The notes: a model not told the origin generated them from the letters alone. A stretch of 19,056 nucleotides of DNA from a virus (IMGVR_UViG_2713896899_000019:1-19056), one strand, 5' to 3'. Shown: positions 3,389-12,925, counted from the first letter of the stretch. Numbers and translations are program-made.

Positions 3389-4134
3389 TATTTACCCTCC
3401 CAACCAATCACCTGAAACAGCCCCATCTTCGGGTGATACCAGCGGGTACCACGTGGCTCTGCCTCTGACATCATCTGATGAAATGCTTTCATGAATGGCT
3501 CCAGCTCCACGATAGCCCGGCGCGAAAGAAGACCATCTGGTGTCATAAATTCGTGCGTATCGGTTGGGATGCTGTAGGCATTGACCAGATTGCGGCACTT
3601 AGCATCAGTCATTCCGCTTTTGGCGACCACCTGGCGATAACCGACATATCCGGCGCGCATATTTCCGCGTTTGATGGTTTCCACCGCTTCTGTGACTGTT
3701 TCGAGCTGTTCTTCCACATGATTCAGGCGCTTCTGTTGACGAACAGCGTCGGCGGCTATCGCAGCGATCATCTCGATTTCCGTTAGCGGTGTGCGAGTGC
3801 GGAAGTAGCTGTTAACCAGTTCGCGCTGAACCTGCCAGGCAAGGGCGTCATTGAATGGCTTCGTCAACATCAGGTAACCTGATTCAAAAAGTACAATCCC
3901 TGATGGTGCAAATTTAGAGAATGTTCCTTCCGGGAGGTCCGTACGTATTACGTCCGCACCTAATTCGGCATAATCCACACCGCTGATGAAATGCTCACGG
4001 TTTCGGTTGAATGCTGCACGCGCTGTTCCTTCCGGTCGCTGGTGGACTTCATCAATCATCGCCAGCGTCACAACACGCTGACCGCGATATTCGACTGCCG
4101 GAAGCTGTTTGTTATTGATCGTTACTATGTTCAT
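3388..4134 (-). CDS. KilA-N/ORF6N-type DNA-binding protein, antirepressor-like (248 aa)
   Basis: The N-terminus (NNKQLPAVEYRGQRVVTLAMIDEVHQRPEGTARAAFNRNREHFISGVDYAEL) matches the ORF6N/KilA-N pattern. A central coiled segment is followed by a C-terminal domain, as in phage antirepressor-like proteins. Confidence 0.7.
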   Translation of the reverse strand: MNIVTINNKQLPAVEYRGQRVVTLAMIDEVHQRPEGTARAAFNRNREHFISGVDYAELGADVIRTDLPEGTFSKFAPSGIVLFESGYLMLTKPFNDALAWQVQRELVNSYFRTRTPLTEIEMIAAIAADAVRQQKRLNHVEEQLETVTEAVETIKRGNMRAGYVGYRQVVAKSGMTDAKCRNLVNAYSIPTDTHEFMTPDGLLSRRAIVELEPFMKAFHQMMSEAEPRGTRWYHPKMGLFQVIGWEGK

Positions 4135-6505: not shown

Positions 6506-6584
6506 TGATACCTCAGTTACGAACTTTGCTTCATGGTAACTAAGGTATCAAGGTGTGGCAAGTGATTTTTGATACTTTGGTTTC
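6506..6584 (-). promoter_or_regulatory. OL/PL: leftward early promoter overlapped by three copies of a TGATAC-N4-GTTAC operator
   Basis: On the minus strand the -35 is TTGCCA (6556-6561), followed by a 17-nt spacer and a -10 TACCAT (6533-6538). The operator-like 15-mers are tgatacctcagttac at 6506-6520, its near-identical copy in inverted orientation at 6536-6550 (between -35 and -10), and tgatactttggtttc at 6570-6584. Confidence 0.55.
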
Positions 6585-6604: not shown

Positions 6605-7261
6605 TCAGAAAATATCCCACCTGGCATCAACCACAACACCTACTATTTCGCAATCATTGTCCATTTCTATGATTGGATATTGTGGATTAAGGGGCTTTAG
6701 AAACGCCTTTCCCATTTCAGAAATATATTTTTTGAATGTTGCTTCATTGGTAGATTTTTTTCTGGCGATGACGTAACACCCTGAAAAAACTTCTTTATCT
6801 GGGTTGACAAGGATCGACATTCCTTCAGGAAATGTTATTCCTACGGGCGAAGTCATTGAGTCTCCGTGCACTTCCAGCCAGAACCCCCTCTCTCCAGCGT
6901 ATTTTACAGAATGCCTCCAATTATCCTGATCATACATGTTGTAGTCATCACCAGCAGTTGCGAATAATCCTGCCTGAACCCAGTTAATTACAGGGTAAGA
7001 GTGTGCTGTGTCTCTCTGTGGGCAGCTCTTAACATTATTTTCCCAATGCTTATCTTTTTCATCTCCGTTCTGAAGCCACTGCGGTGAACACTGCAGTGCA
7101 GCTGCGACTTTAAAAAGGGTGTCACCGTTGAAACTTTTTGTAAGGCCTTGCTCGGCTTTACTGATTGCAACTCTGGTGACCCCTGCTTTTTTAGCCAACG
7201 CATCTTGCGTTAACCCAGCTTTTTGTCGTGCGTTGATGAGGCGTTCACCTAAAGATTTCAT
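6605..7261 (-). CDS. cI: CI-type prophage repressor: N-terminal XRE HTH plus C-terminal S24/LexA-like autopeptidase (218 aa from MKSLGERL)
   Basis: The HTH is QKAGLTQDALAKKAGVTRVAISKAEQG. The C-terminal GDSM Ser motif and a downstream Lys (TFKKY) are typical of the S24 family. The gene is divergent from a cro-like gene. I prefer the ATG at 7261 (AAGGAG 8 nt upstream) over the 243-aa ORF-track start at 7336, which would run through the operators. Confidence 0.85.
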   Translation of the reverse strand: MKSLGERLINARQKAGLTQDALAKKAGVTRVAISKAEQGLTKSFNGDTLFKVAAALQCSPQWLQNGDEKDKHWENNVKSCPQRDTAHSYPVINWVQAGLFATAGDDYNMYDQDNWRHSVKYAGERGFWLEVHGDSMTSPVGITFPEGMSILVNPDKEVFSGCYVIARKKSTNEATFKKYISEMGKAFLKPLNPQYPIIEMDNDCEIVGVVVDARWDIF

Positions 7262-7284
7262 TTTTCTTCTCCTTTCATGGCTGC

Positions 7285-7356
7285 TGATACTAAAGTAACA
7301 GAATTTCTTGATACTTTGGATTCTCGCGTTTAACATTCTTGGATAACAGAGTATCC
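7285..7356 (+). promoter_or_regulatory. OR/PR (and probably PRM): rightward early promoter with three operator copies of the same family as OL
   Basis: PR has a -35 TTGATA (7308-7313), a 17-nt spacer and a -10 TAACAT (7331-7336). The 15-mers are tgatactaaagtaac at 7285-7299, tgatactttggattc at 7309-7323 (overlapping the -35), and an inverted-orientation copy at 7342-7356 (ggataacagagtatcc, with palindromic ends) over the predicted start site. Confidence 0.6.
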
Positions 7357-7372
7357 GGTGTGAGGCTAAAGA

Positions 7373-7624
7373 ATGACCCTTTATGAAATATTAAAAACTC
7401 AATTTAAGACCAATGCCGCTATTGGCCGTAGGTTCCCAAAGAAAGGAAGGCCTCGTGGTAGTCAGGGAGTTGGAAAGTGGAAAACACGGGGCGTTCCGGA
7501 GGATGTTGCCATTCTCTGCCATCTGGATCCGAACATTCCATATACACATCCAAGCTTAGCGCGCACGGGAGAGGTGAAGGGCTTGTATGTCCCAGAATTA
7601 CGTTCAGACAGAGATGCCATCTAG
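7373..7624 (+). CDS. cro: Cro-like small DNA-binding regulator (83 aa)
   Basis: First gene downstream of PR and divergent from cI, with a GAGG Shine-Dalgarno sequence upstream. The sequence pattern (AAIGRRF...SQGVGKWKTRGVPEDVAILCHL) resembles Cro/YdaS-type HTH proteins. Confidence 0.7.
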   Translation: MTLYEILKTQFKTNAAIGRRFPKKGRPRGSQGVGKWKTRGVPEDVAILCHLDPNIPYTHPSLARTGEVKGLYVPELRSDRDAI

Positions 7625-7880
7625 GTACTGCCAGGCAGACGAAGAGTGGATTCAGCAGCAGTTACAGGGGCTGCCTCCGTCACTGAGACGGAAGGTCGCC
7701 CTGAAATATGCGGAGGTATACGAAATCACTTTTGACGCTGAGCCTGTTTCATTCCGCAAGGAGAACAGAGCAAGGCACGAAGCAAACACAAGGCTCCGCT
7801 TGTTTGTGAGAAATCAGGGCAGAGCTTTACAGGGGTATACAACTCAGCCGCCCCTGGCAGGAACGCAATCGCGCTCCTGA
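7587..7880 (+). CDS. Hypothetical protein in the cII position (97 aa; alternative start at 7614)
   Basis: ORF with a good Shine-Dalgarno sequence (GGAGAGGTGAAGG) before the ATG at 7587. It overlaps the cro 3' end by 38 nt. Function is inferred only from position. Confidence 0.5.
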   Translation: MSQNYVQTEMPSRYCQADEEWIQQQLQGLPPSLRRKVALKYAEVYEITFDAEPVSFRKENRARHEANTRLRLFVRNQGRALQGYTTQPPLAGTQSRS

Positions 7881-8129
7881 TTGGTACCGGGCTTAAAGGT
7901 GTCCGGTGGCTGAATCCCAAATCTCATTGCATTTGTGTACTAGCTAAGGAGTACATGCAAAATTCAGTGAGAGGAGGGGAGGGGGAGGAGTGCTCGTGTG
8001 TTAGTGCGAAGCACTGGAACAGGCTTTTCCAACAGACGGGTACATAGGTTAGGTAGATCTCGATCTAAAGGGGGATACCTCTGAAAAAACGGCTGTACCA
8101 TAAAGCTAGTACAAAATGGATAAAAAAGT

Positions 8130-8498
8130 ATGAGTGAAGACCTGAAGCAAAATTTAATCGCTCTCCTGGAAGAGCAATTCATTCGCTCCGATGACAAAGT
8201 CGTTTTCGATTATGTGATGCAGAAAAAAATCAAGTCTCAGGGATACCATCTGCAACGCAATTTCAGCATCAGCATTAGCGGTGGTCGTAAAGGGTTTATT
8301 GATTGCCTGGTTACATCATCAGACGGCCAGCAGTGTGCCATTGAGGTCGATAAGAAGTCTCCCCGCAACCGTTCGTTGATGAAGCTGGCTCAGCTACCTG
8401 AGGGGATGTCAGGCTTTGTCCTGCTCAGGGATGGTAAGCACCCTCTTCGATATAGCGAGAACGGAATTGACGTTATTCGTGCGACGAAATTTAAGTGA
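8130..8498 (+). CDS. Small protein with a possible PD-(D/E)xK nuclease-fold motif (122 aa)
   Basis: ORF upstream of the helicase. The segment GFIDCLVTSSDGQQCAIEVDKK has the D...E-x-D-K-K spacing typical of restriction-endonuclease-like folds. This was recognised by eye only. Confidence 0.5.
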   Translation: MSEDLKQNLIALLEEQFIRSDDKVVFDYVMQKKIKSQGYHLQRNFSISISGGRKGFIDCLVTSSDGQQCAIEVDKKSPRNRSLMKLAQLPEGMSGFVLLRDGKHPLRYSENGIDVIRATKFK

Positions 8499-8559
8499 GT
8501 TGATTCGGAAAGGGGCTGGCAGCCTTTGGGGAGACCACCAGCCATGTGAGGAGGAATCC

Positions 8560-8619
8560 ATGAAAACCACATCACAAAATTATTATCTCATCACTGCGGG
8601 GACAGCACAATGCAGCTGA
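8560..8619 (+). CDS. Candidate 19-aa leader/coupling ORF (MKTTSQNYYLITAGTAQCS)
   Basis: GAGGAGG (8548-8554) sits 5 nt before the ATG at 8560. The TGA stop (8617-8619) overlaps the helicase ATG (8610) region. Confidence 0.3.
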   Translation: MKTTSQNYYLITAGTAQCS

Positions 8620-10268
8620 CAATCACGCCGAATTTTGCACAGGAGCGAGCGCTAAACATGTTGCGCCGTGACTGGAAGGCAAACGACACCTTCATGGTTT
8701 ACTCGCCAACAGGTAGCGGTAAAACGGGTCTGGCAGCCTTCATCGTTGCTGGTTTTGTCAGCCGTGGTATGCGTGTTCTGTTCTGTGTTCCGTACACCAT
8801 CCTGATTGGTCAGACGGCTAATCGGTTCGTGCAGTATGGTTTACCTGGAGATGAAATCGGTTATATCTGGGCGGATCACCCGAACTACGATCCGGACCGG
8901 AAAATTCAGATTGCCAGCGCTGACACGCTTATTCGTCGTGTTTTTCCTGAAAATATCGATCTGCTGATTATCGACGAAGCGCACCTGCGTAAAAAACGCA
9001 TCCTGAAGGATATCGAACGTCTGCGCGGCAAAGGCGTAAAGGTGATTGGCCTGTCGGGTACTCCGTTTTCTCCGTTCCTGGGCAAATACTATGACCGACT
9101 GATTAAGCCGACCACCATCGGCGAGTTAATCCAGCGTGGCGATCTGAGTAAATACGAATTTTACGCGCCAACTAAGCCGGATCTGAAAGGTGTTAAAACC
9201 ACATCTTCGCTTGAGTACGGCCGCGATTACAACGAAACACAGCTGGCTGAAATCATGTGCGGCTCTACGCTGGTGGGCGACATCGTACAGAACTGGCTGG
9301 AGAATGGTCGGGATCTACCTACCATCGCTTTCTGCGTCAACGTAGCCCACGCCAATTACCTGACAATCCAGTTTAACCTCGCAGGTGTTAACGCTGAGGT
9401 AATGACCGCAGACACTCCGGTAGATGAGCGCCAGACCATCATTCACCGCTTTGAAACTGGTGCAACGAAAATCATCGTTAGTGTGGGCGTTCTGGTGGCC
9501 GGCTTTGATAGTGACGTTCGTTGCATCATCTACGCCAGGCCAACAAAAAGCGAAATTCGCTGGTTGCAGGCACTCGGGCGTGGGCTGCGCACCGCACCGG
9601 GTAAAGAGTCCTGCCTTATCTTCGATCACAGCGGCACCGTGCACCGTTTGGGTTATCCGGATTCAATCGAGTACGACGATCTTCCCGGTAAGTCTGACGG
9701 CATGGAGGAAAGCGCGCGCCGCGCAGTTGAGGAACGGGCCGAAAAACTGCCACATGAATGCCCTCAATGCCACTACATGAAGCCAGCTGGCGTCTATGTT
9801 TGCCCTAAATGTGGACACAAGCCGCTGCGAGGTGAAGATGTTGATACTGACACTAGCCGCAAACTTAATAAGCTGGGTAAAAATCAGCATCAGTCGACGA
9901 AGACAGAGAAACAGTCCTGGTGGAGTCAGATCAAATTTTATCAGCGCCAGCGTGCTTCGCTGGGGCGTCCAGTCAGTGATGGATGGTGTGCTCACACTTT
10001 CAGGGAGAAATTCGGTGAATGGCCTGATGGGTTGAGCAGTTTCCCGATGGAAATAAGCCCAGAAGTAAGTAACTACATCAAACACAAGCTGATTCGGTTT
10101 GCCAAAGGCCGTCAGCGGACGCAGAGAACTATAGAAAAATTGCAGGCAACGATTCCTCTGTCTCAGGAACGAGGTGAGCGAAGCGAGATGCCAATAGGCA
10201 CTGAGGCTTGGCGCATCATGCAAGCAAAGCAACAACTCCAGAAAAATATAAACAGTTTGAGTCAGTAA
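8610..10268 (+). CDS. Superfamily-2 DEAD/DEAH-box helicase with a C-terminal zinc ribbon (552 aa)
   Basis: Walker A is SPTGSGKTG, motif II is IIDEAHL, motif III is SGTP and motif VI is QALGRGLR. The C-terminal CPQC...CPKC forms a zinc ribbon. Confidence 0.85.
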   Translation: MQLTITPNFAQERALNMLRRDWKANDTFMVYSPTGSGKTGLAAFIVAGFVSRGMRVLFCVPYTILIGQTANRFVQYGLPGDEIGYIWADHPNYDPDRKIQIASADTLIRRVFPENIDLLIIDEAHLRKKRILKDIERLRGKGVKVIGLSGTPFSPFLGKYYDRLIKPTTIGELIQRGDLSKYEFYAPTKPDLKGVKTTSSLEYGRDYNETQLAEIMCGSTLVGDIVQNWLENGRDLPTIAFCVNVAHANYLTIQFNLAGVNAEVMTADTPVDERQTIIHRFETGATKIIVSVGVLVAGFDSDVRCIIYARPTKSEIRWLQALGRGLRTAPGKESCLIFDHSGTVHRLGYPDSIEYDDLPGKSDGMEESARRAVEERAEKLPHECPQCHYMKPAGVYVCPKCGHKPLRGEDVDTDTSRKLNKLGKNQHQSTKTEKQSWWSQIKFYQRQRASLGRPVSDGWCAHTFREKFGEWPDGLSSFPMEISPEVSNYIKHKLIRFAKGRQRTQRTIEKLQATIPLSQERGERSEMPIGTEAWRIMQAKQQLQKNINSLSQ

Positions 10269-10269
10269 G

Positions 10270-11238
10270 ATGAAAACAGCAGCTGCAGCGAAAGGCCGCT
10301 GGCCTGAAATATTAGAGCACTTCGGCTTGCCGCCGATAACAGGAAAAAATCACTTCAAGGGTGAATGCCCGGTATGCGGTGCACGTGGCAAGTTCCGAAT
10401 TGATGACCGCGACGGTGCAGGAACGTGGATCTGTGTATGTGGTAGTGGCGATGGTATGAAACTTGTCACCCTGACACAGGCGAAGCCATTTAACGAGATT
10501 TGTACCGAAATAGACCGCCTGATCGGTAATGATTACCAACGGGTTAAAATCCCGGTAACCAGCAGCGCCACCAGCTTACGCAAACGGGTATTGAGCAAGT
10601 TTTCAAAACTGGAGGCACTGCGTGGTACATCCGGCGCAGCGTATCTTAATTCTCGTGGAATATTCAGTCTTCCTGCTGAGGCGATCCGGTTCAATGCCAG
10701 GCAGAGACACAACGGGAGTGTGTTCCAGTCTCTTTATTCACTTGCTACGGACGATAAAGGGGAGTTGTGCTATCTGCACCAGACTCTGCTTGATGGTGAT
10801 AAAAAAGCAGATATCGGTAGCAGTGCAAAGCGCCTCAAATCCCTGCAGGAAGATAACTATTTGGATCACGCTCGTTCTGTAGCTATCCGCATGTTTCCTG
10901 TTGCTAGCACTCTGGGTATCGCCGAAGGCATCGAAACAGCGCTGTCAGCGCACCAGATTTATAACGTGAACACTTGGGCAACCATTAACAGCGGCTTTAT
11001 GAAAAAGTTCCGCGTACCAGCTGGTGTTCTGCACCTGATTATTTTTGCCGACCGTGACGAGAACAGCGCCACCGGGCTGGCTGCGGCTTGCGAATGTGCT
11101 CATGCCAATCTGATGGCAAAGAATGACCTGCAGCGCGTGAGCGTGTACTGGCCGGATCACGATGATTTCAACAATATGCTCATGAACGGTGATCAGGTTC
11201 GAGAGCTGGTTTTCCATAAGAAAAAGGCGGTTGCGTAA
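10270..11238 (+). CDS. Primase-like protein: P4-alpha-type zinc-binding motif plus Toprim domain (322 aa)
   Basis: The N-terminal CPVCGARGKFRIDDRDGAGTWICVCG is a primase-helicase zinc-binding motif. The Toprim Glu (AEGIETALS) and DxD (FADRDEN) are present. The start lies 1 nt after the helicase stop. Confidence 0.8.
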   Translation: MKTAAAAKGRWPEILEHFGLPPITGKNHFKGECPVCGARGKFRIDDRDGAGTWICVCGSGDGMKLVTLTQAKPFNEICTEIDRLIGNDYQRVKIPVTSSATSLRKRVLSKFSKLEALRGTSGAAYLNSRGIFSLPAEAIRFNARQRHNGSVFQSLYSLATDDKGELCYLHQTLLDGDKKADIGSSAKRLKSLQEDNYLDHARSVAIRMFPVASTLGIAEGIETALSAHQIYNVNTWATINSGFMKKFRVPAGVLHLIIFADRDENSATGLAAACECAHANLMAKNDLQRVSVYWPDHDDFNNMLMNGDQVRELVFHKKKAVA

Positions 11239-12095
11239 TGCGTACTGATAACAACGAACATAAAGCACTATTCACCATCCCGACGGCAGCGTACAGCTCC
11301 GCCCTCGCAAACATCAAGCCCCTGCCAGAGCAACGGAGAATCACCGGGCATAAGCAGACTGATGCTTATCTTTGGGTGCTGGAGGTTATCCGTCTGAACG
11401 AACCCGCACATCTGGATGCTGCTGAGGCTGCGCTGGTGAAAATTAAAATTTCCCCAAAAGAGGCCCAGGAACGCTATTCGCGTTATCTGCTGGCGAATGG
11501 TGGTGATCCTTTCCAGATTGCTTTCGGTACCATCGGCATGGATAACCCGGCACAGGCAATCAGGATCGCCCGGGAGAATATCAAAAAAGCAACATCAGTC
11601 AGGGCTACGTTTGGTAGCTATGAAGCAGCACTCGAAGATGTGGAAGCCGAGCGAGTGATCAAGTCTTCCCAGAAATTTATCGACGATCATCTCTGGGGCT
11701 GGACTGCAGCCGAGAAGACAGCGGGCAGAATTGATGGCATCCGTATGAATGAAATTGATGATCAGCGTCGTGCATATGTTGATGGCTATCGTGATGTACT
11801 GCCAGAGCCTCATACATTGTCAGACGTAGTTCGTGAGTTTGTTTACTGGGACTGGCTCTACAGTGTTCGCCACACTGCGTCTAAAGAACAGGGCGATGAG
11901 TATGGTTACTCTGAGCATCACGAATCGGTATATGACCGCGAGCGCTACCTTGAAAAATTGCTGATGACCATCAAACCGGTGACACGGGCTGAAGCCGTGG
12001 AGGTGTGTCGTTGGTTTTTGGCAAGCGGAAAGGGCGAATATATGAAAGACAATGGCGCGGCTGTTATTCTTAATCTGGTTGGGGAGTGTGAATAA
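11238..12095 (+). CDS. Hypothetical protein (285 aa), translationally coupled to the primase and Q genes
   Basis: Long ORF with TAATG overlaps at both ends (11235-11240 and 12092-12097). No family recognised. Confidence 0.65.
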   Translation: MRTDNNEHKALFTIPTAAYSSALANIKPLPEQRRITGHKQTDAYLWVLEVIRLNEPAHLDAAEAALVKIKISPKEAQERYSRYLLANGGDPFQIAFGTIGMDNPAQAIRIARENIKKATSVRATFGSYEAALEDVEAERVIKSSQKFIDDHLWGWTAAEKTAGRIDGIRMNEIDDQRRAYVDGYRDVLPEPHTLSDVVREFVYWDWLYSVRHTASKEQGDEYGYSEHHESVYDRERYLEKLLMTIKPVTRAEAVEVCRWFLASGKGEYMKDNGAAVILNLVGECE

Positions 12096-12925
12096 TGAAG
12101 CTTGAGGCATCGCTAAAATACTTCAGTCCTCAGGGAATGTATATCGGCGACGATGTGAAAGGAACCTCTCCGGAACGTCTTACAGGCACCGATGTTATGG
12201 CGGCTATTGGTACCACCAGCAATCGTGAGCGGTTTGGCTTGGCGGCCTTCTTCGGGAAGGCCGGTATCAGCAAGACTGATGAGCAGATGGCAGTCCAAGC
12301 GCTGGCGCGTCACGCGATGGAAATTGCACCGAAGAATGTGCGTAAAGCAGCTGGTGGTGAATTTGGCTGGTGTATGCTGGTACTGGCGCAGTTTGCTTTT
12401 GCTGAGTATTCCCGATCGGCAGACACCAGCGTAACATGCCATAGTTGCAGTGGTACCGGACTAACACCCCGTAAGCAGGTCATTCGTAAGGTTTCATACC
12501 CATGGGGTAAAGCACCATATTGGGCCAGTCGCTCCCGTGCTGTTCGACCGTCAGACTGGGAGAAATGGACAGAGGTAACGGAAGTTGTACCAGTCGTTTG
12601 CGATGTATGTAAAGGGAAGGGAGTGATAAGTGCCAGGTGTCGTTGTGGTGGAAAGGGGGAGGTACTCGACCGCAAAGCTACAAGCGAGCGTGGTGCACCA
12701 GTGTTTAAAATCTGCGAACGTTGCAGCGGAAATGGATTTTCCACGGTACCGTCTACCACAGTATATAAAGTTGTACTGAAGCGGATACCCGAGCTACATG
12801 TCAGGACATGGACGCGTAATTGGAAGCCGTTTCTTGATTCTCTGGTTGACATTTGCCACCAGGAAGAGCGTAAGGCCGATATTGCTTTTCAGAATGTGAC
12901 AAGTTTTGGTGATGATGTGAACTAA
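12095..12925 (+). CDS. Q: Late-gene antiterminator Q, Qin-prophage (QuuQ/YdfT)-like type with a DnaJ-like zinc-finger region (276 aa)
   Basis: Last gene before the late promoter and lysis cassette. The N-terminal region resembles my recollection of E. coli QuuQ. There are four CxxCxGxG-type repeats: CHSCSGTG, CDVCKGKG, CRCGGKG and CERCSGNG. Confidence 0.7.
   Translation: MKLEASLKYFSPQGMYIGDDVKGTSPERLTGTDVMAAIGTTSNRERFGLAAFFGKAGISKTDEQMAVQALARHAMEIAPKNVRKAAGGEFGWCMLVLAQFAFAEYSRSADTSVTCHSCSGTGLTPRKQVIRKVSYPWGKAPYWASRSRAVRPSDWEKWTEVTEVVPVVCDVCKGKGVISARCRCGGKGEVLDRKATSERGAPVFKICERCSGNGFSTVPSTTVYKVVLKRIPELHVRTWTRNWKPFLDSLVDICHQEERKADIAFQNVTSFGDDVN

Follow-up and report, generated by a model that had tools for sequence, protein, structure and literature searches.

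A conserved non-coding island upstream of the helicase and primase genes of a lambdoid prophage, a candidate replication origin

The DNA stretch IMGVR_UViG_2713896899_000019:1-19056 (hereafter the window; 19,056 nucleotides, nt) is a lambdoid prophage of the Fels-1/phi467 type, in which a non-coding island at positions 7881-8129 lies between a gene for a 97-amino-acid (97-aa) protein and the genes for a superfamily 2 (SF2) helicase and a Toprim primase. The island is a genuine conserved control element. From comparison of its sequence among related phages, we regard it as a cis-acting DNA region of the 97-aa/helicase/primase module, most likely its replication origin, and put the probability of this reading at roughly 0.5. 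It is a composite, in which two inverted sites of duplex type, about 150 base pairs (bp) apart and different from allele to allele, bracket a conserved core. This core consists of a G-rich tract on the non-template strand, covarying folds of the plus strand, the box TAGGTTAGGTAG with GATC, and a run of A.

All coordinates are those of the window unless a locus is named. The sample consisted of 131 loci with 71 distinct island sequences, obtained from records holding the island and from pattern scans and protein-guided searches, the latter two adding viral contigs and three genome loci. A scan of species-representative genomes gave three matches only, so the taxonomic range reported here is drawn mostly from viral contigs and protein searches. 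The chance expectation for the twin sites was taken from shuffles, and covariation scores were set against shuffled and slid controls.

In all 131 loci the 97-aa gene is followed by the island, an optional gene, the SF2 helicase gene and the Toprim primase gene, in this sequence, and the helicase and primase genes were syntenic with the island in each examined locus reaching far enough. Such fixed synteny with the helicase-primase pair is a first reason to read the island as an origin. Between the 97-aa stop codon and the start of the helicase gene lie 300-450 nt where there is no inserted gene (44 loci), 600-750 nt where a gene for a 122-aa protein is present, and 850-1000 nt where the insert is a homing-endonuclease-type gene (HNH_3+NUMOD4). 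The module is widespread, its carriers being prophages from Escherichia, Salmonella, Klebsiella, Citrobacter, Enterobacter and Yersinia and including Shiga-toxin phages; the gene order is also kept in distant relatives, namely a Vibrio phage (41% protein identity) and loci L148, L150-L154 and L156-L158. Across the island, identity to the window is 95% in phi467, 85% in Fels-1 and 81-82% in two Klebsiella phages. The island also occurs in 58 complete E. coli genomes, and none of the public records containing it has an annotation for it. Among close relatives, identity is 91-95% in the core (7966-8068), compared with 63-83% in the 97-aa gene and 73-84% in the helicase gene, and a core that exceeds its flanking genes in conservation again speaks for an origin. 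A phage carrying Shiga toxin 2a (Stx2a) and a replication region of the Eru1 type has the same layout, with a 207-nt island that retains the G-tract and the box TAGGTTAGGTAG. An initial annotation, made from the window alone, had named lack of conservation among phages with the same flanking genes as a ground for its own rejection; among these phages the island is conserved. A plasmid origin was considered and rejected, a single plasmid record being found to hold the island.

All sequence features listed in the initial annotation were found where it placed them, including the lack of a credible open reading frame (ORF) in 7881-8129. The plus strand has ORFs of 28-30 aa only, and the minus strand one of 77 aa with a TTG start. 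The annotation had offered a short conserved protein gene as the finding that would overturn it, and no conserved small ORF was found: besides the shortness of the plus-strand ORFs, homologous islands carry indels of 1-2 nt within the conserved core, and hence no reading frame is maintained. The palindrome TGTAC-N10-GTACA occurs exactly twice in the window (7936-7955 and 8094-8113), where 0.01 occurrences are expected. The outer 10 nt of the two sites are perfect reverse complements, as had been claimed, and a repeat search extends this inverted repeat to 13 nt with 92% complementarity, the arms being 158 nt apart. The purine run at 7969-7990 is the sole purine run of at least 20 nt in 19 kb, and quadruplex scoring, which had been proposed as a check, makes it the highest G4Hunter-style site in the window. 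Twin sites and purine run far exceed chance. GTAC is dense here, with six copies within 7884-8112 (230 bp) against about one per 323 bp across the window. The TAGGT-TAGGT word was confirmed at 8045-8054. The pair of GATC sites is likewise present (8056, 8062), but two such sites alone are not unusual, and GATC is not enriched in the window (66 found, 79 expected). A hairpin described at 7989-8015 exists, although relatives favour the inner pairing AGTGC/GCACT (8003-8015, loop GAA) over the outer one. The best-supported structure, a hairpin at 7886-7907 which we call H1, was absent from the initial annotation.

The left and right palindromes, IR-L and IR-R (Table 1), have a fixed internal spacing and invariant arms. 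Departures from pairing were about equally T:G and C:A, with 7 versus 6 in IR-L and 17 versus 18 in IR-R, which is the pattern of a protein site in duplex DNA and not that of an RNA stem. In all alleles of the GTAC type the two sites are 147-161 bp apart, and paired inverted sites of DNA type with a kept spacing favour an origin; specificity sites paired in this way around a centre are known from the oriS of herpes simplex virus (HSV) and from pathogenicity-island origins. In other alleles these two positions are occupied by different repeats. Where the HNH/NUMOD4 gene is present, and in the Yersinia allele, the GTAC palindromes are replaced by arrays of 3-7 in-phase tandem 8-mers near AGACGTCT, which is the E. 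coli MetJ 'met box' consensus. These arrays lie at 2560-2600 and 2680-2720 in L007, in the upstream flank of L064/L065, and in L071 and L118; their autocorrelation is 0.41 at lag 8 and 0.38 at lag 16, although Tandem Repeats Finder made no call on them. One further allele has a 12-bp inverted pair, TTTAGCCATCTA, and the Eru1 type has TAGTT-type repeats.

The palindromes invite a reading as operators. It is improbable, in our view, that the island serves transcriptional control, with a dimeric regulator that binds the palindromes, perhaps forming a loop of the intervening 150 bp, and gates a weak internal promoter or blocks read-through. The resemblance to 18-bp helix-turn-helix operators (GTACTAG-N4-CTAGTAC) and the conserved spacing would suit such a regulator, and the island of the Vibrio relative has a terminator and a sigma-70-like promoter. 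However, no sigma-70-like promoter or intrinsic terminator was found on either strand of the island in the window, the palindromes are unlike the CI/Cro operators, and a simple operator leaves the 100-bp core, the G-tract and the covarying folds unexplained. IR-L and IR-R were also considered as CI/Cro operators themselves and rejected, the immunity operators being of GATAC/GTATC type. Likely CI/Cro operators, consisting of GATAC/GTATC palindromes, lie on both sides of the repressor gene (6506-6582 and 7308-7366), examples being TGATACCTCAGTTAC/GTAACTAAGGTATCA and GGATAACAGAGTATCC.

Within the core, the box TAGGTTAGGTAG is the most conserved part. All 71 distinct islands have GGTTAR, and 64 of them the exact GGTTARGTAG. 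GATC follows within 40 nt of the box in 68, and it is this conservation that makes the two GATC sites notable; a run of at least four A follows within 75 nt past the box in 63, the sequence around the run being variable. In the distant locus L152 the exact 11-mer of the box has the opposite orientation, which indicates that the box acts as duplex DNA. The inversion in a distant relative, together with the conservation of GATC and the A-run, is counted in favour of an origin. In L152 the block TAGGTTAGGTA, followed by GATCGAG, occupies 3937-3965 in opposite orientation to the window. A short G-run remains there on the gene-sense strand and may merely be the ribosome-binding site of a small ORF.

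The genes flanking the island are all rightward, and the G-tract is on their non-template strand, as at R-loop origins. At least two G-runs of four or more are found on the plus strand in all 71 distinct islands, in some alleles as just two G5 runs, and the G4Hunter-style maximum on that strand has a mean of 2.15 and a minimum of 1.48. Judged from sequence, the element may extend beyond the island to about 8174, inside the next gene. The motif TCCTGGAAGAG, which in the window falls among the first codons of the 122-aa gene, is non-coding and stands about 20-40 nt 5' of the helicase start in islands without that gene; it coincides with a hairpin-forming stretch at 8156-8179 inside the 122-aa gene, which is the sole call of the promoter and terminator scan nearby (terminator-like, minus strand). 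On the other side, the last codons of the 97-aa gene (7827-7860) are conserved at the nucleotide level, Klebsiella included, as CAGGGGTATAC..CCCCTGGC, and are able to pair as CAGGGG/CCCCTG; for this reason the element may reach leftward into that gene as well.

Three plus-strand structures are supported by comparison of alleles. H1 starts 6 nt past the 97-aa stop codon and was found in 70 of the 71 distinct islands, duplicated in many other alleles. Its loop TTAAAGGT is invariant. Among its 41 distinct versions 90.9% of cells pair, and compensatory changes are seen in six of the seven pairs, giving a covariation score of 0.585 compared with 0.243 in shuffled and at most 0.16 in slid controls. 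Non-canonical pairs are G:U in 29 cases versus A:C in 4, an excess which makes the fold specific to the plus strand. H1 is the only hairpin of its kind in the window, the other two TTAAAGGY matches not being hairpins. On this evidence H1 is probably a separate plus-strand-specific single-strand element acting as RNA. The sequence 5' of it, within the 97-aa coding sequence, is CGCTCCTGA in the window and follows a CG-NN-CC pattern across alleles.

P2 is a long imperfect hairpin capped by IR-L, seen in the fold of the window and in 43 distinct alleles with differing but complementary arms; in the window, for example, these read UCUCAUUG/CAGUGAGA, and in Klebsiella UCUCGUUU/AAACGAGA. Its G:U pairs number 161 on the plus versus 28 on the minus strand, a difference to which base composition contributes. 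P3 is a Y-shaped fold; across 15 distinct sequences its cells are 92.9% paired, with five compensatory pairs, and the covariation score is 0.235, compared with 0.131 shuffled and at most 0.10 slid. Its closing helix is GUGCCCG/CGGGUAC in the window type, GGAGUUG/CAACUCC in Yersinia and UUGAUC/GAUCAA in L118 (same contig as L035), and the loop of arm P3b is 7-9 nt long among alleles. In 15 distinct sequences the GCGAAGC hairpin of arm P3a is preserved, its stem showing a compensatory change. RNAalifold favours another inner pairing for P3. Within 7990-8025, the 5' strand of the P3 helix (GTGCYNG) can alternatively pair with ACAGGC or ACGGG in the P3b loop, with matching changes in two lineages, and two mutually exclusive folds are therefore possible.

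These folds could equally point to an island that acts as RNA, that is, as a structured untranslated part of about 250 nt of the early transcript which controls helicase-primase expression. It might do so by shielding a long untranslated stretch from Rho, by having the transcript processed or stabilised, or through the Arg-rich 97-aa protein, whose binding to H1 would modulate read-through. We consider such an RNA unlikely to be the main function, yet a serious alternative. H1 has strong covariation, a sense-strand G:U bias and an invariant loop, and P2 and P3 covary on the same strand. The sense strand is 30% G and 18% C, the opposite of a Rho loading site, and the island has no promoter-like site and so is presumably transcribed from the early promoter; the Vibrio relative has an intrinsic terminator at the H1 position, and the 97-aa protein carries an Arg-rich helix. 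Against these stand the variation of IR-L and IR-R as duplex DNA sites, the reversal of the most conserved box in L152, and the GATC conservation and allele-specific 8-bp arrays, which are DNA-type features. In addition, distant relatives have AT-rich repeat DNA in the slot and no conserved fold, folding z-scores are equal on the two strands, and the window has a single H1 site and no conserved boxA. The covariance models of Rfam 15 gave no match in the whole window at gathering thresholds, and permissive thresholds over 7500-8500 gave matches at chance level only (E 0.36-7.9). The initial annotation had named a replication origin, a binding platform for the 97-aa protein and a structured non-coding RNA as candidates. 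An origin fits the comparative anatomy best, and a structured single strand accounts for parts of the island; these parts do fold with covariation, but RNA and single-stranded DNA are indistinguishable here.

The segment between island and helicase, in which the optional gene lies, bears further on the origin. It holds no gene, a gene with a PD-(D/E)XK fold, an HNH_3+NUMOD4 gene or a RepL/winged-helix gene (8130-8498 in the window, 2718-3350 in L007, 670-1110 in L156, 3096-3521 in L157). RepL, HTH_Crp_2 or HTH_36 genes occupy this slot in L152, L156 and L157, and the slot gene of the Vibrio phage (L067) is annotated as RepL-type in its record, with no match in Pfam. The L067 island is AT-rich DNA with four direct repeats of about 20 bp (TACCG..AGTATTA), and that of L148 has a G+C content of 26%. 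That the slot before the helicase is interchangeable and can take initiator-type genes, and that distant relatives hold AT-rich repeat DNA or RepL-type genes in it, are both arguments for an origin. In L067 an intrinsic terminator with the loop TTAATC lies at 2237-2264, exactly at the position of the enterobacterial H1, and a sigma-70-like promoter lies at 2513-2541, just 5' of the RepL-annotated gene.

In L007 and L079 island alleles have been exchanged next to helicases that are nearly identical, and independently of the flanking genes, and the Yersinia allele resembles a recombinant, with a left flank like that of L039 and a right flank like that of the window. Both would be expected of a recombination linker or landing pad used in mosaic exchange or targeted by the adjoining free-standing nuclease genes, as would the HNH/NUMOD4 or PD-(D/E)XK gene in the same slot. 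Still, islands without an insert keep the full architecture, covariation and strand-fixed G-richness are unexpected for a passive linker, and the conservation extends to relatives too diverged for homologous exchange; we hold this explanation to be very improbable.

Several results weigh against an origin. The G+C content is 47% over 7800-8199, so the island is not AT-rich; no family of direct repeats, and thus no direct iterons, was found in 7881-8129; and the only match to a DnaA box in the island has one mismatch (8080-8088, minus strand). The swaps in L007 and L079 show no tight co-evolution of element and helicase. Flank type showed no correlation with the C-terminal tail of the helicase, with the 97-aa protein, with cro type or with the 122-aa gene, and no protein matching the flanking sites could be tied to them by comparison. 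The inverted box was seen in one locus only. The GCGAAGC hairpin is missing in alleles without an inserted gene and in the Eru1 type, and GCGNAGC is not enriched in the window. Folding z-scores favour neither strand, with means of -3.4 (plus) and -3.6 (minus), and the strand-specific covariation is equally explained by an RNA function.

The strand-fixed G-tract and the covarying plus-strand folds are also counted in favour of an origin, and would fit one that is opened by transcription. Early rightward transcription would traverse the island, and the G-rich non-template strand could promote an R-loop or G-quadruplex, exposing the plus strand as a single strand. The exposed strand would then fold, with the GCGAAGC mini-hairpin included, and the phage helicase and primase might load onto it, while specificity and timing would come from the flanking sites, from the box and from Dam methylation of GATC. 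In its full form, a transcription-activated 'G-loop' origin would have an R-loop or hybrid quadruplex, a folded displaced strand that loads helicase and primase, and swappable sites which together with the 97-aa protein set specificity; the latter may additionally bind H1 on the transcript. We offer this full form tentatively, as a rather unlikely one. If true, it would represent a bacterial-virus origin that works with neither a classical initiator nor an AT-rich unwinding element.

Table 1. Features of the island and neighbouring genes in the window.
Feature	Position	Strand	Remarks
S24-type CI repressor gene	6605-7336	-	
cro-like gene	7373-7624		
97-aa protein gene	7587-7880	+	Invariable left neighbour of the island
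H1 hairpin	7886-7907	+	7-bp stem (7886-7892 with 7901-7907), 8-nt loop TTAAAGGT (7893-7900)
P2 hairpin	7915-7979	+	Long, imperfect; pyrimidine-rich 5' arm with start of purine tract; capped by IR-L
IR-L	7936-7955		Left palindrome TGTAC-N10-GTACA; consensus GTACTAG-N4-CTAGTAC
G-rich polypurine tract	7969-7990	+	Non-template strand for rightward early genes
P3 fold	7990-8043	+	Y-shaped; closing helix 7990-7996 with 8037-8043
P3a arm	8003-8015	+	AGTGC-GAA-GCACT, contains GCGAAGC
P3b arm	8016-8030	+	GGAA-N7-TTCC
Box and GATC	8045-8065		Most conserved box TAGGTTAGGTAG, then two GATC (8056, 8062)
A-run	8084-8089		6 nt, between box and IR-R
IR-R	8094-8113		Right palindrome, inverted copy of IR-L
122-aa protein gene	8130-8498	+	Optional insert; predicted PD-(D/E)XK nuclease fold
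TCCTGGAAGAG motif	8164-8174		First codons (12-15) of 122-aa gene; possible right extension
SF2 (ResIII/DEAD) helicase gene	8610-10268	+	Pfam and PHROG matches
Zn-ribbon/Toprim primase gene	10270-11238	+	Pfam and PHROG matches
285-aa protein gene			Right of primase, left of Q gene
Q antiterminator gene	12095-12925		

The 97-aa gene immediately precedes the island in all 131 loci and in the distant relatives, and its family comprises 279 representative clusters. As to the island as a platform for it, the 97-aa protein does accompany the island throughout, but its structure model matches nothing. The protein is helical with an Arg-rich C-terminal half. It gave no convincing Pfam match (one fell below the cut-off) and no sequence or fold match in PDB, and its structure model is poor (predicted local distance difference test, pLDDT, 59). 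Its identification as CII was rejected; true CII genes lie upstream of the 97-aa gene in L152 and L157, and this coexistence places the 97-aa protein in the replication module and not in the immunity region.

The 122-aa protein had been suggested as a binding partner of the island, which does not agree with its standing as an optional insert of predicted nuclease fold. Its AlphaFold2 model has a pLDDT of 79, and the best fold matches in PDB are the nucleases Bax1, NucS/EndoMS, Card1 and McrC. Bax1 is the nuclease partner of the SF2 helicase XPB. In 44 loci the gene is missing and the island adjoins the helicase gene, and other loci have the HNH_3+NUMOD4 gene instead. As an initiator the 122-aa protein was rejected on account of its nuclease fold and its absence from these 44 loci; from the modelled fold, its gene is best classed as cargo. 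The window helicase is 66% identical to that of the Stx2a phage with Eru1 architecture. The C-terminal 50 or so helicase residues (10100-10268) are a mosaic hot spot with a few recurring tail types, tail identity being 18-74% between helicases otherwise up to 98-100% identical.

Papers defining the non-lambdoid 'Eru' replication regions describe the helicase and the primase and name no origin, and further literature search added none. The Eru1 region, which is found in Stx2a phages of highly virulent enterohaemorrhagic E. coli, carries the module, and the location of an origin would bear on it. With a cis element located, it becomes testable how such phages start DNA synthesis without initiators of the O/P type, what the 97-aa protein does, and whether a G-rich origin that is not AT-rich is opened by transcription. 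Shiga-toxin gene dosage after induction is driven by the level of replication, and the element is a possible target for dampening toxin. The island merits annotation and could serve as a compact marker for typing the module.

Among known systems, lambda ori and nutR/boxB have the position of the island, in the early right operon shortly ahead of the replication genes, and H1, like the nutR hairpin, has a conserved loop on the early transcript. The lambda ori lies inside gene O beside P and has four O-binding repeats of 18-19 bp and an AT-rich stretch of about 40 bp. By contrast, no O- or P-like protein is found in the window, and the island is intergenic, lacks direct repeats and has a G+C content of 47%. 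H1 also differs from boxB in its 8-nt loop, and a conserved boxA upstream of it was not found across alleles. As to an N-type nut system, the leftward operon showed no second site and an N-like protein was not identified in the window, small leftward ORFs matching PHROGs of unknown function only. An iteron-type origin would have at least three direct repeats of about 17-22 bp; these are absent in the window, whereas the Vibrio phage relative has four. It would also have an AT-rich unwinding element, in place of which the island has a 6-nt A-run only. The put RNA of HK022 is a further parallel, as a cis-acting RNA of the early transcript in a lambdoid phage without N; it is about 70 nt long with two long bulged stems, one copy following each early promoter (PMC9378689). 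Going by that description, H1 differs, being 22 nt long with a 7-bp stem, in a single copy in the window (sometimes two elsewhere) and only after the 97-aa gene.

With ColE1 RNA II, T4 oriF/oriG and mitochondrial conserved sequence block (CSB) II the island shares a G-rich non-template tract past an early promoter in structured surroundings. CSB II forms a hybrid G-quadruplex, and some island alleles have a comparable tract of two G5 runs. The window phage differs in encoding its own primase, and the flanking protein sites have no counterpart in the R-loop origins. GCGNAGC mini-hairpins have been reported at the origin of phage G4, and a related CCGAAGG mini-hairpin in ssiA of RSF1010; like the island, the G4 origin and RSF1010 ssiA/ssiB have hairpins on one strand with a mini-hairpin of GCGNAGC type beside a replicon-encoded primase (PMC13037366). 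Those signals, however, have a length of about 40 nt and work on single-stranded templates, and the mini-hairpin is found only in some island alleles.

The origins of staphylococcal pathogenicity islands and P4 are similar in that a non-coding origin adjoins primase and helicase genes and has two sets of short element-specific repeats around a central segment. They lie downstream of the rep gene, with an AT-rich centre and with specificity residing in the Rep helicase, whereas the phage island is upstream of the helicase-primase genes and has the 97-aa protein as its partner. HSV oriS is eukaryotic-viral, with no sequence relation to this bacterial system; its centre is AT-rich where that of the island is G-rich and conserved, and the tail of the phage helicase does not track site type. 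The likeness is one of plan. In both, two inverted sites bracket a centre and the replicon has an SF2 helicase gene of its own, UL9 being the origin-binding SF2 helicase of HSV; and the strand-specific hairpin form proposed for oriS may be likened to the single-strand folds that covary in the island.

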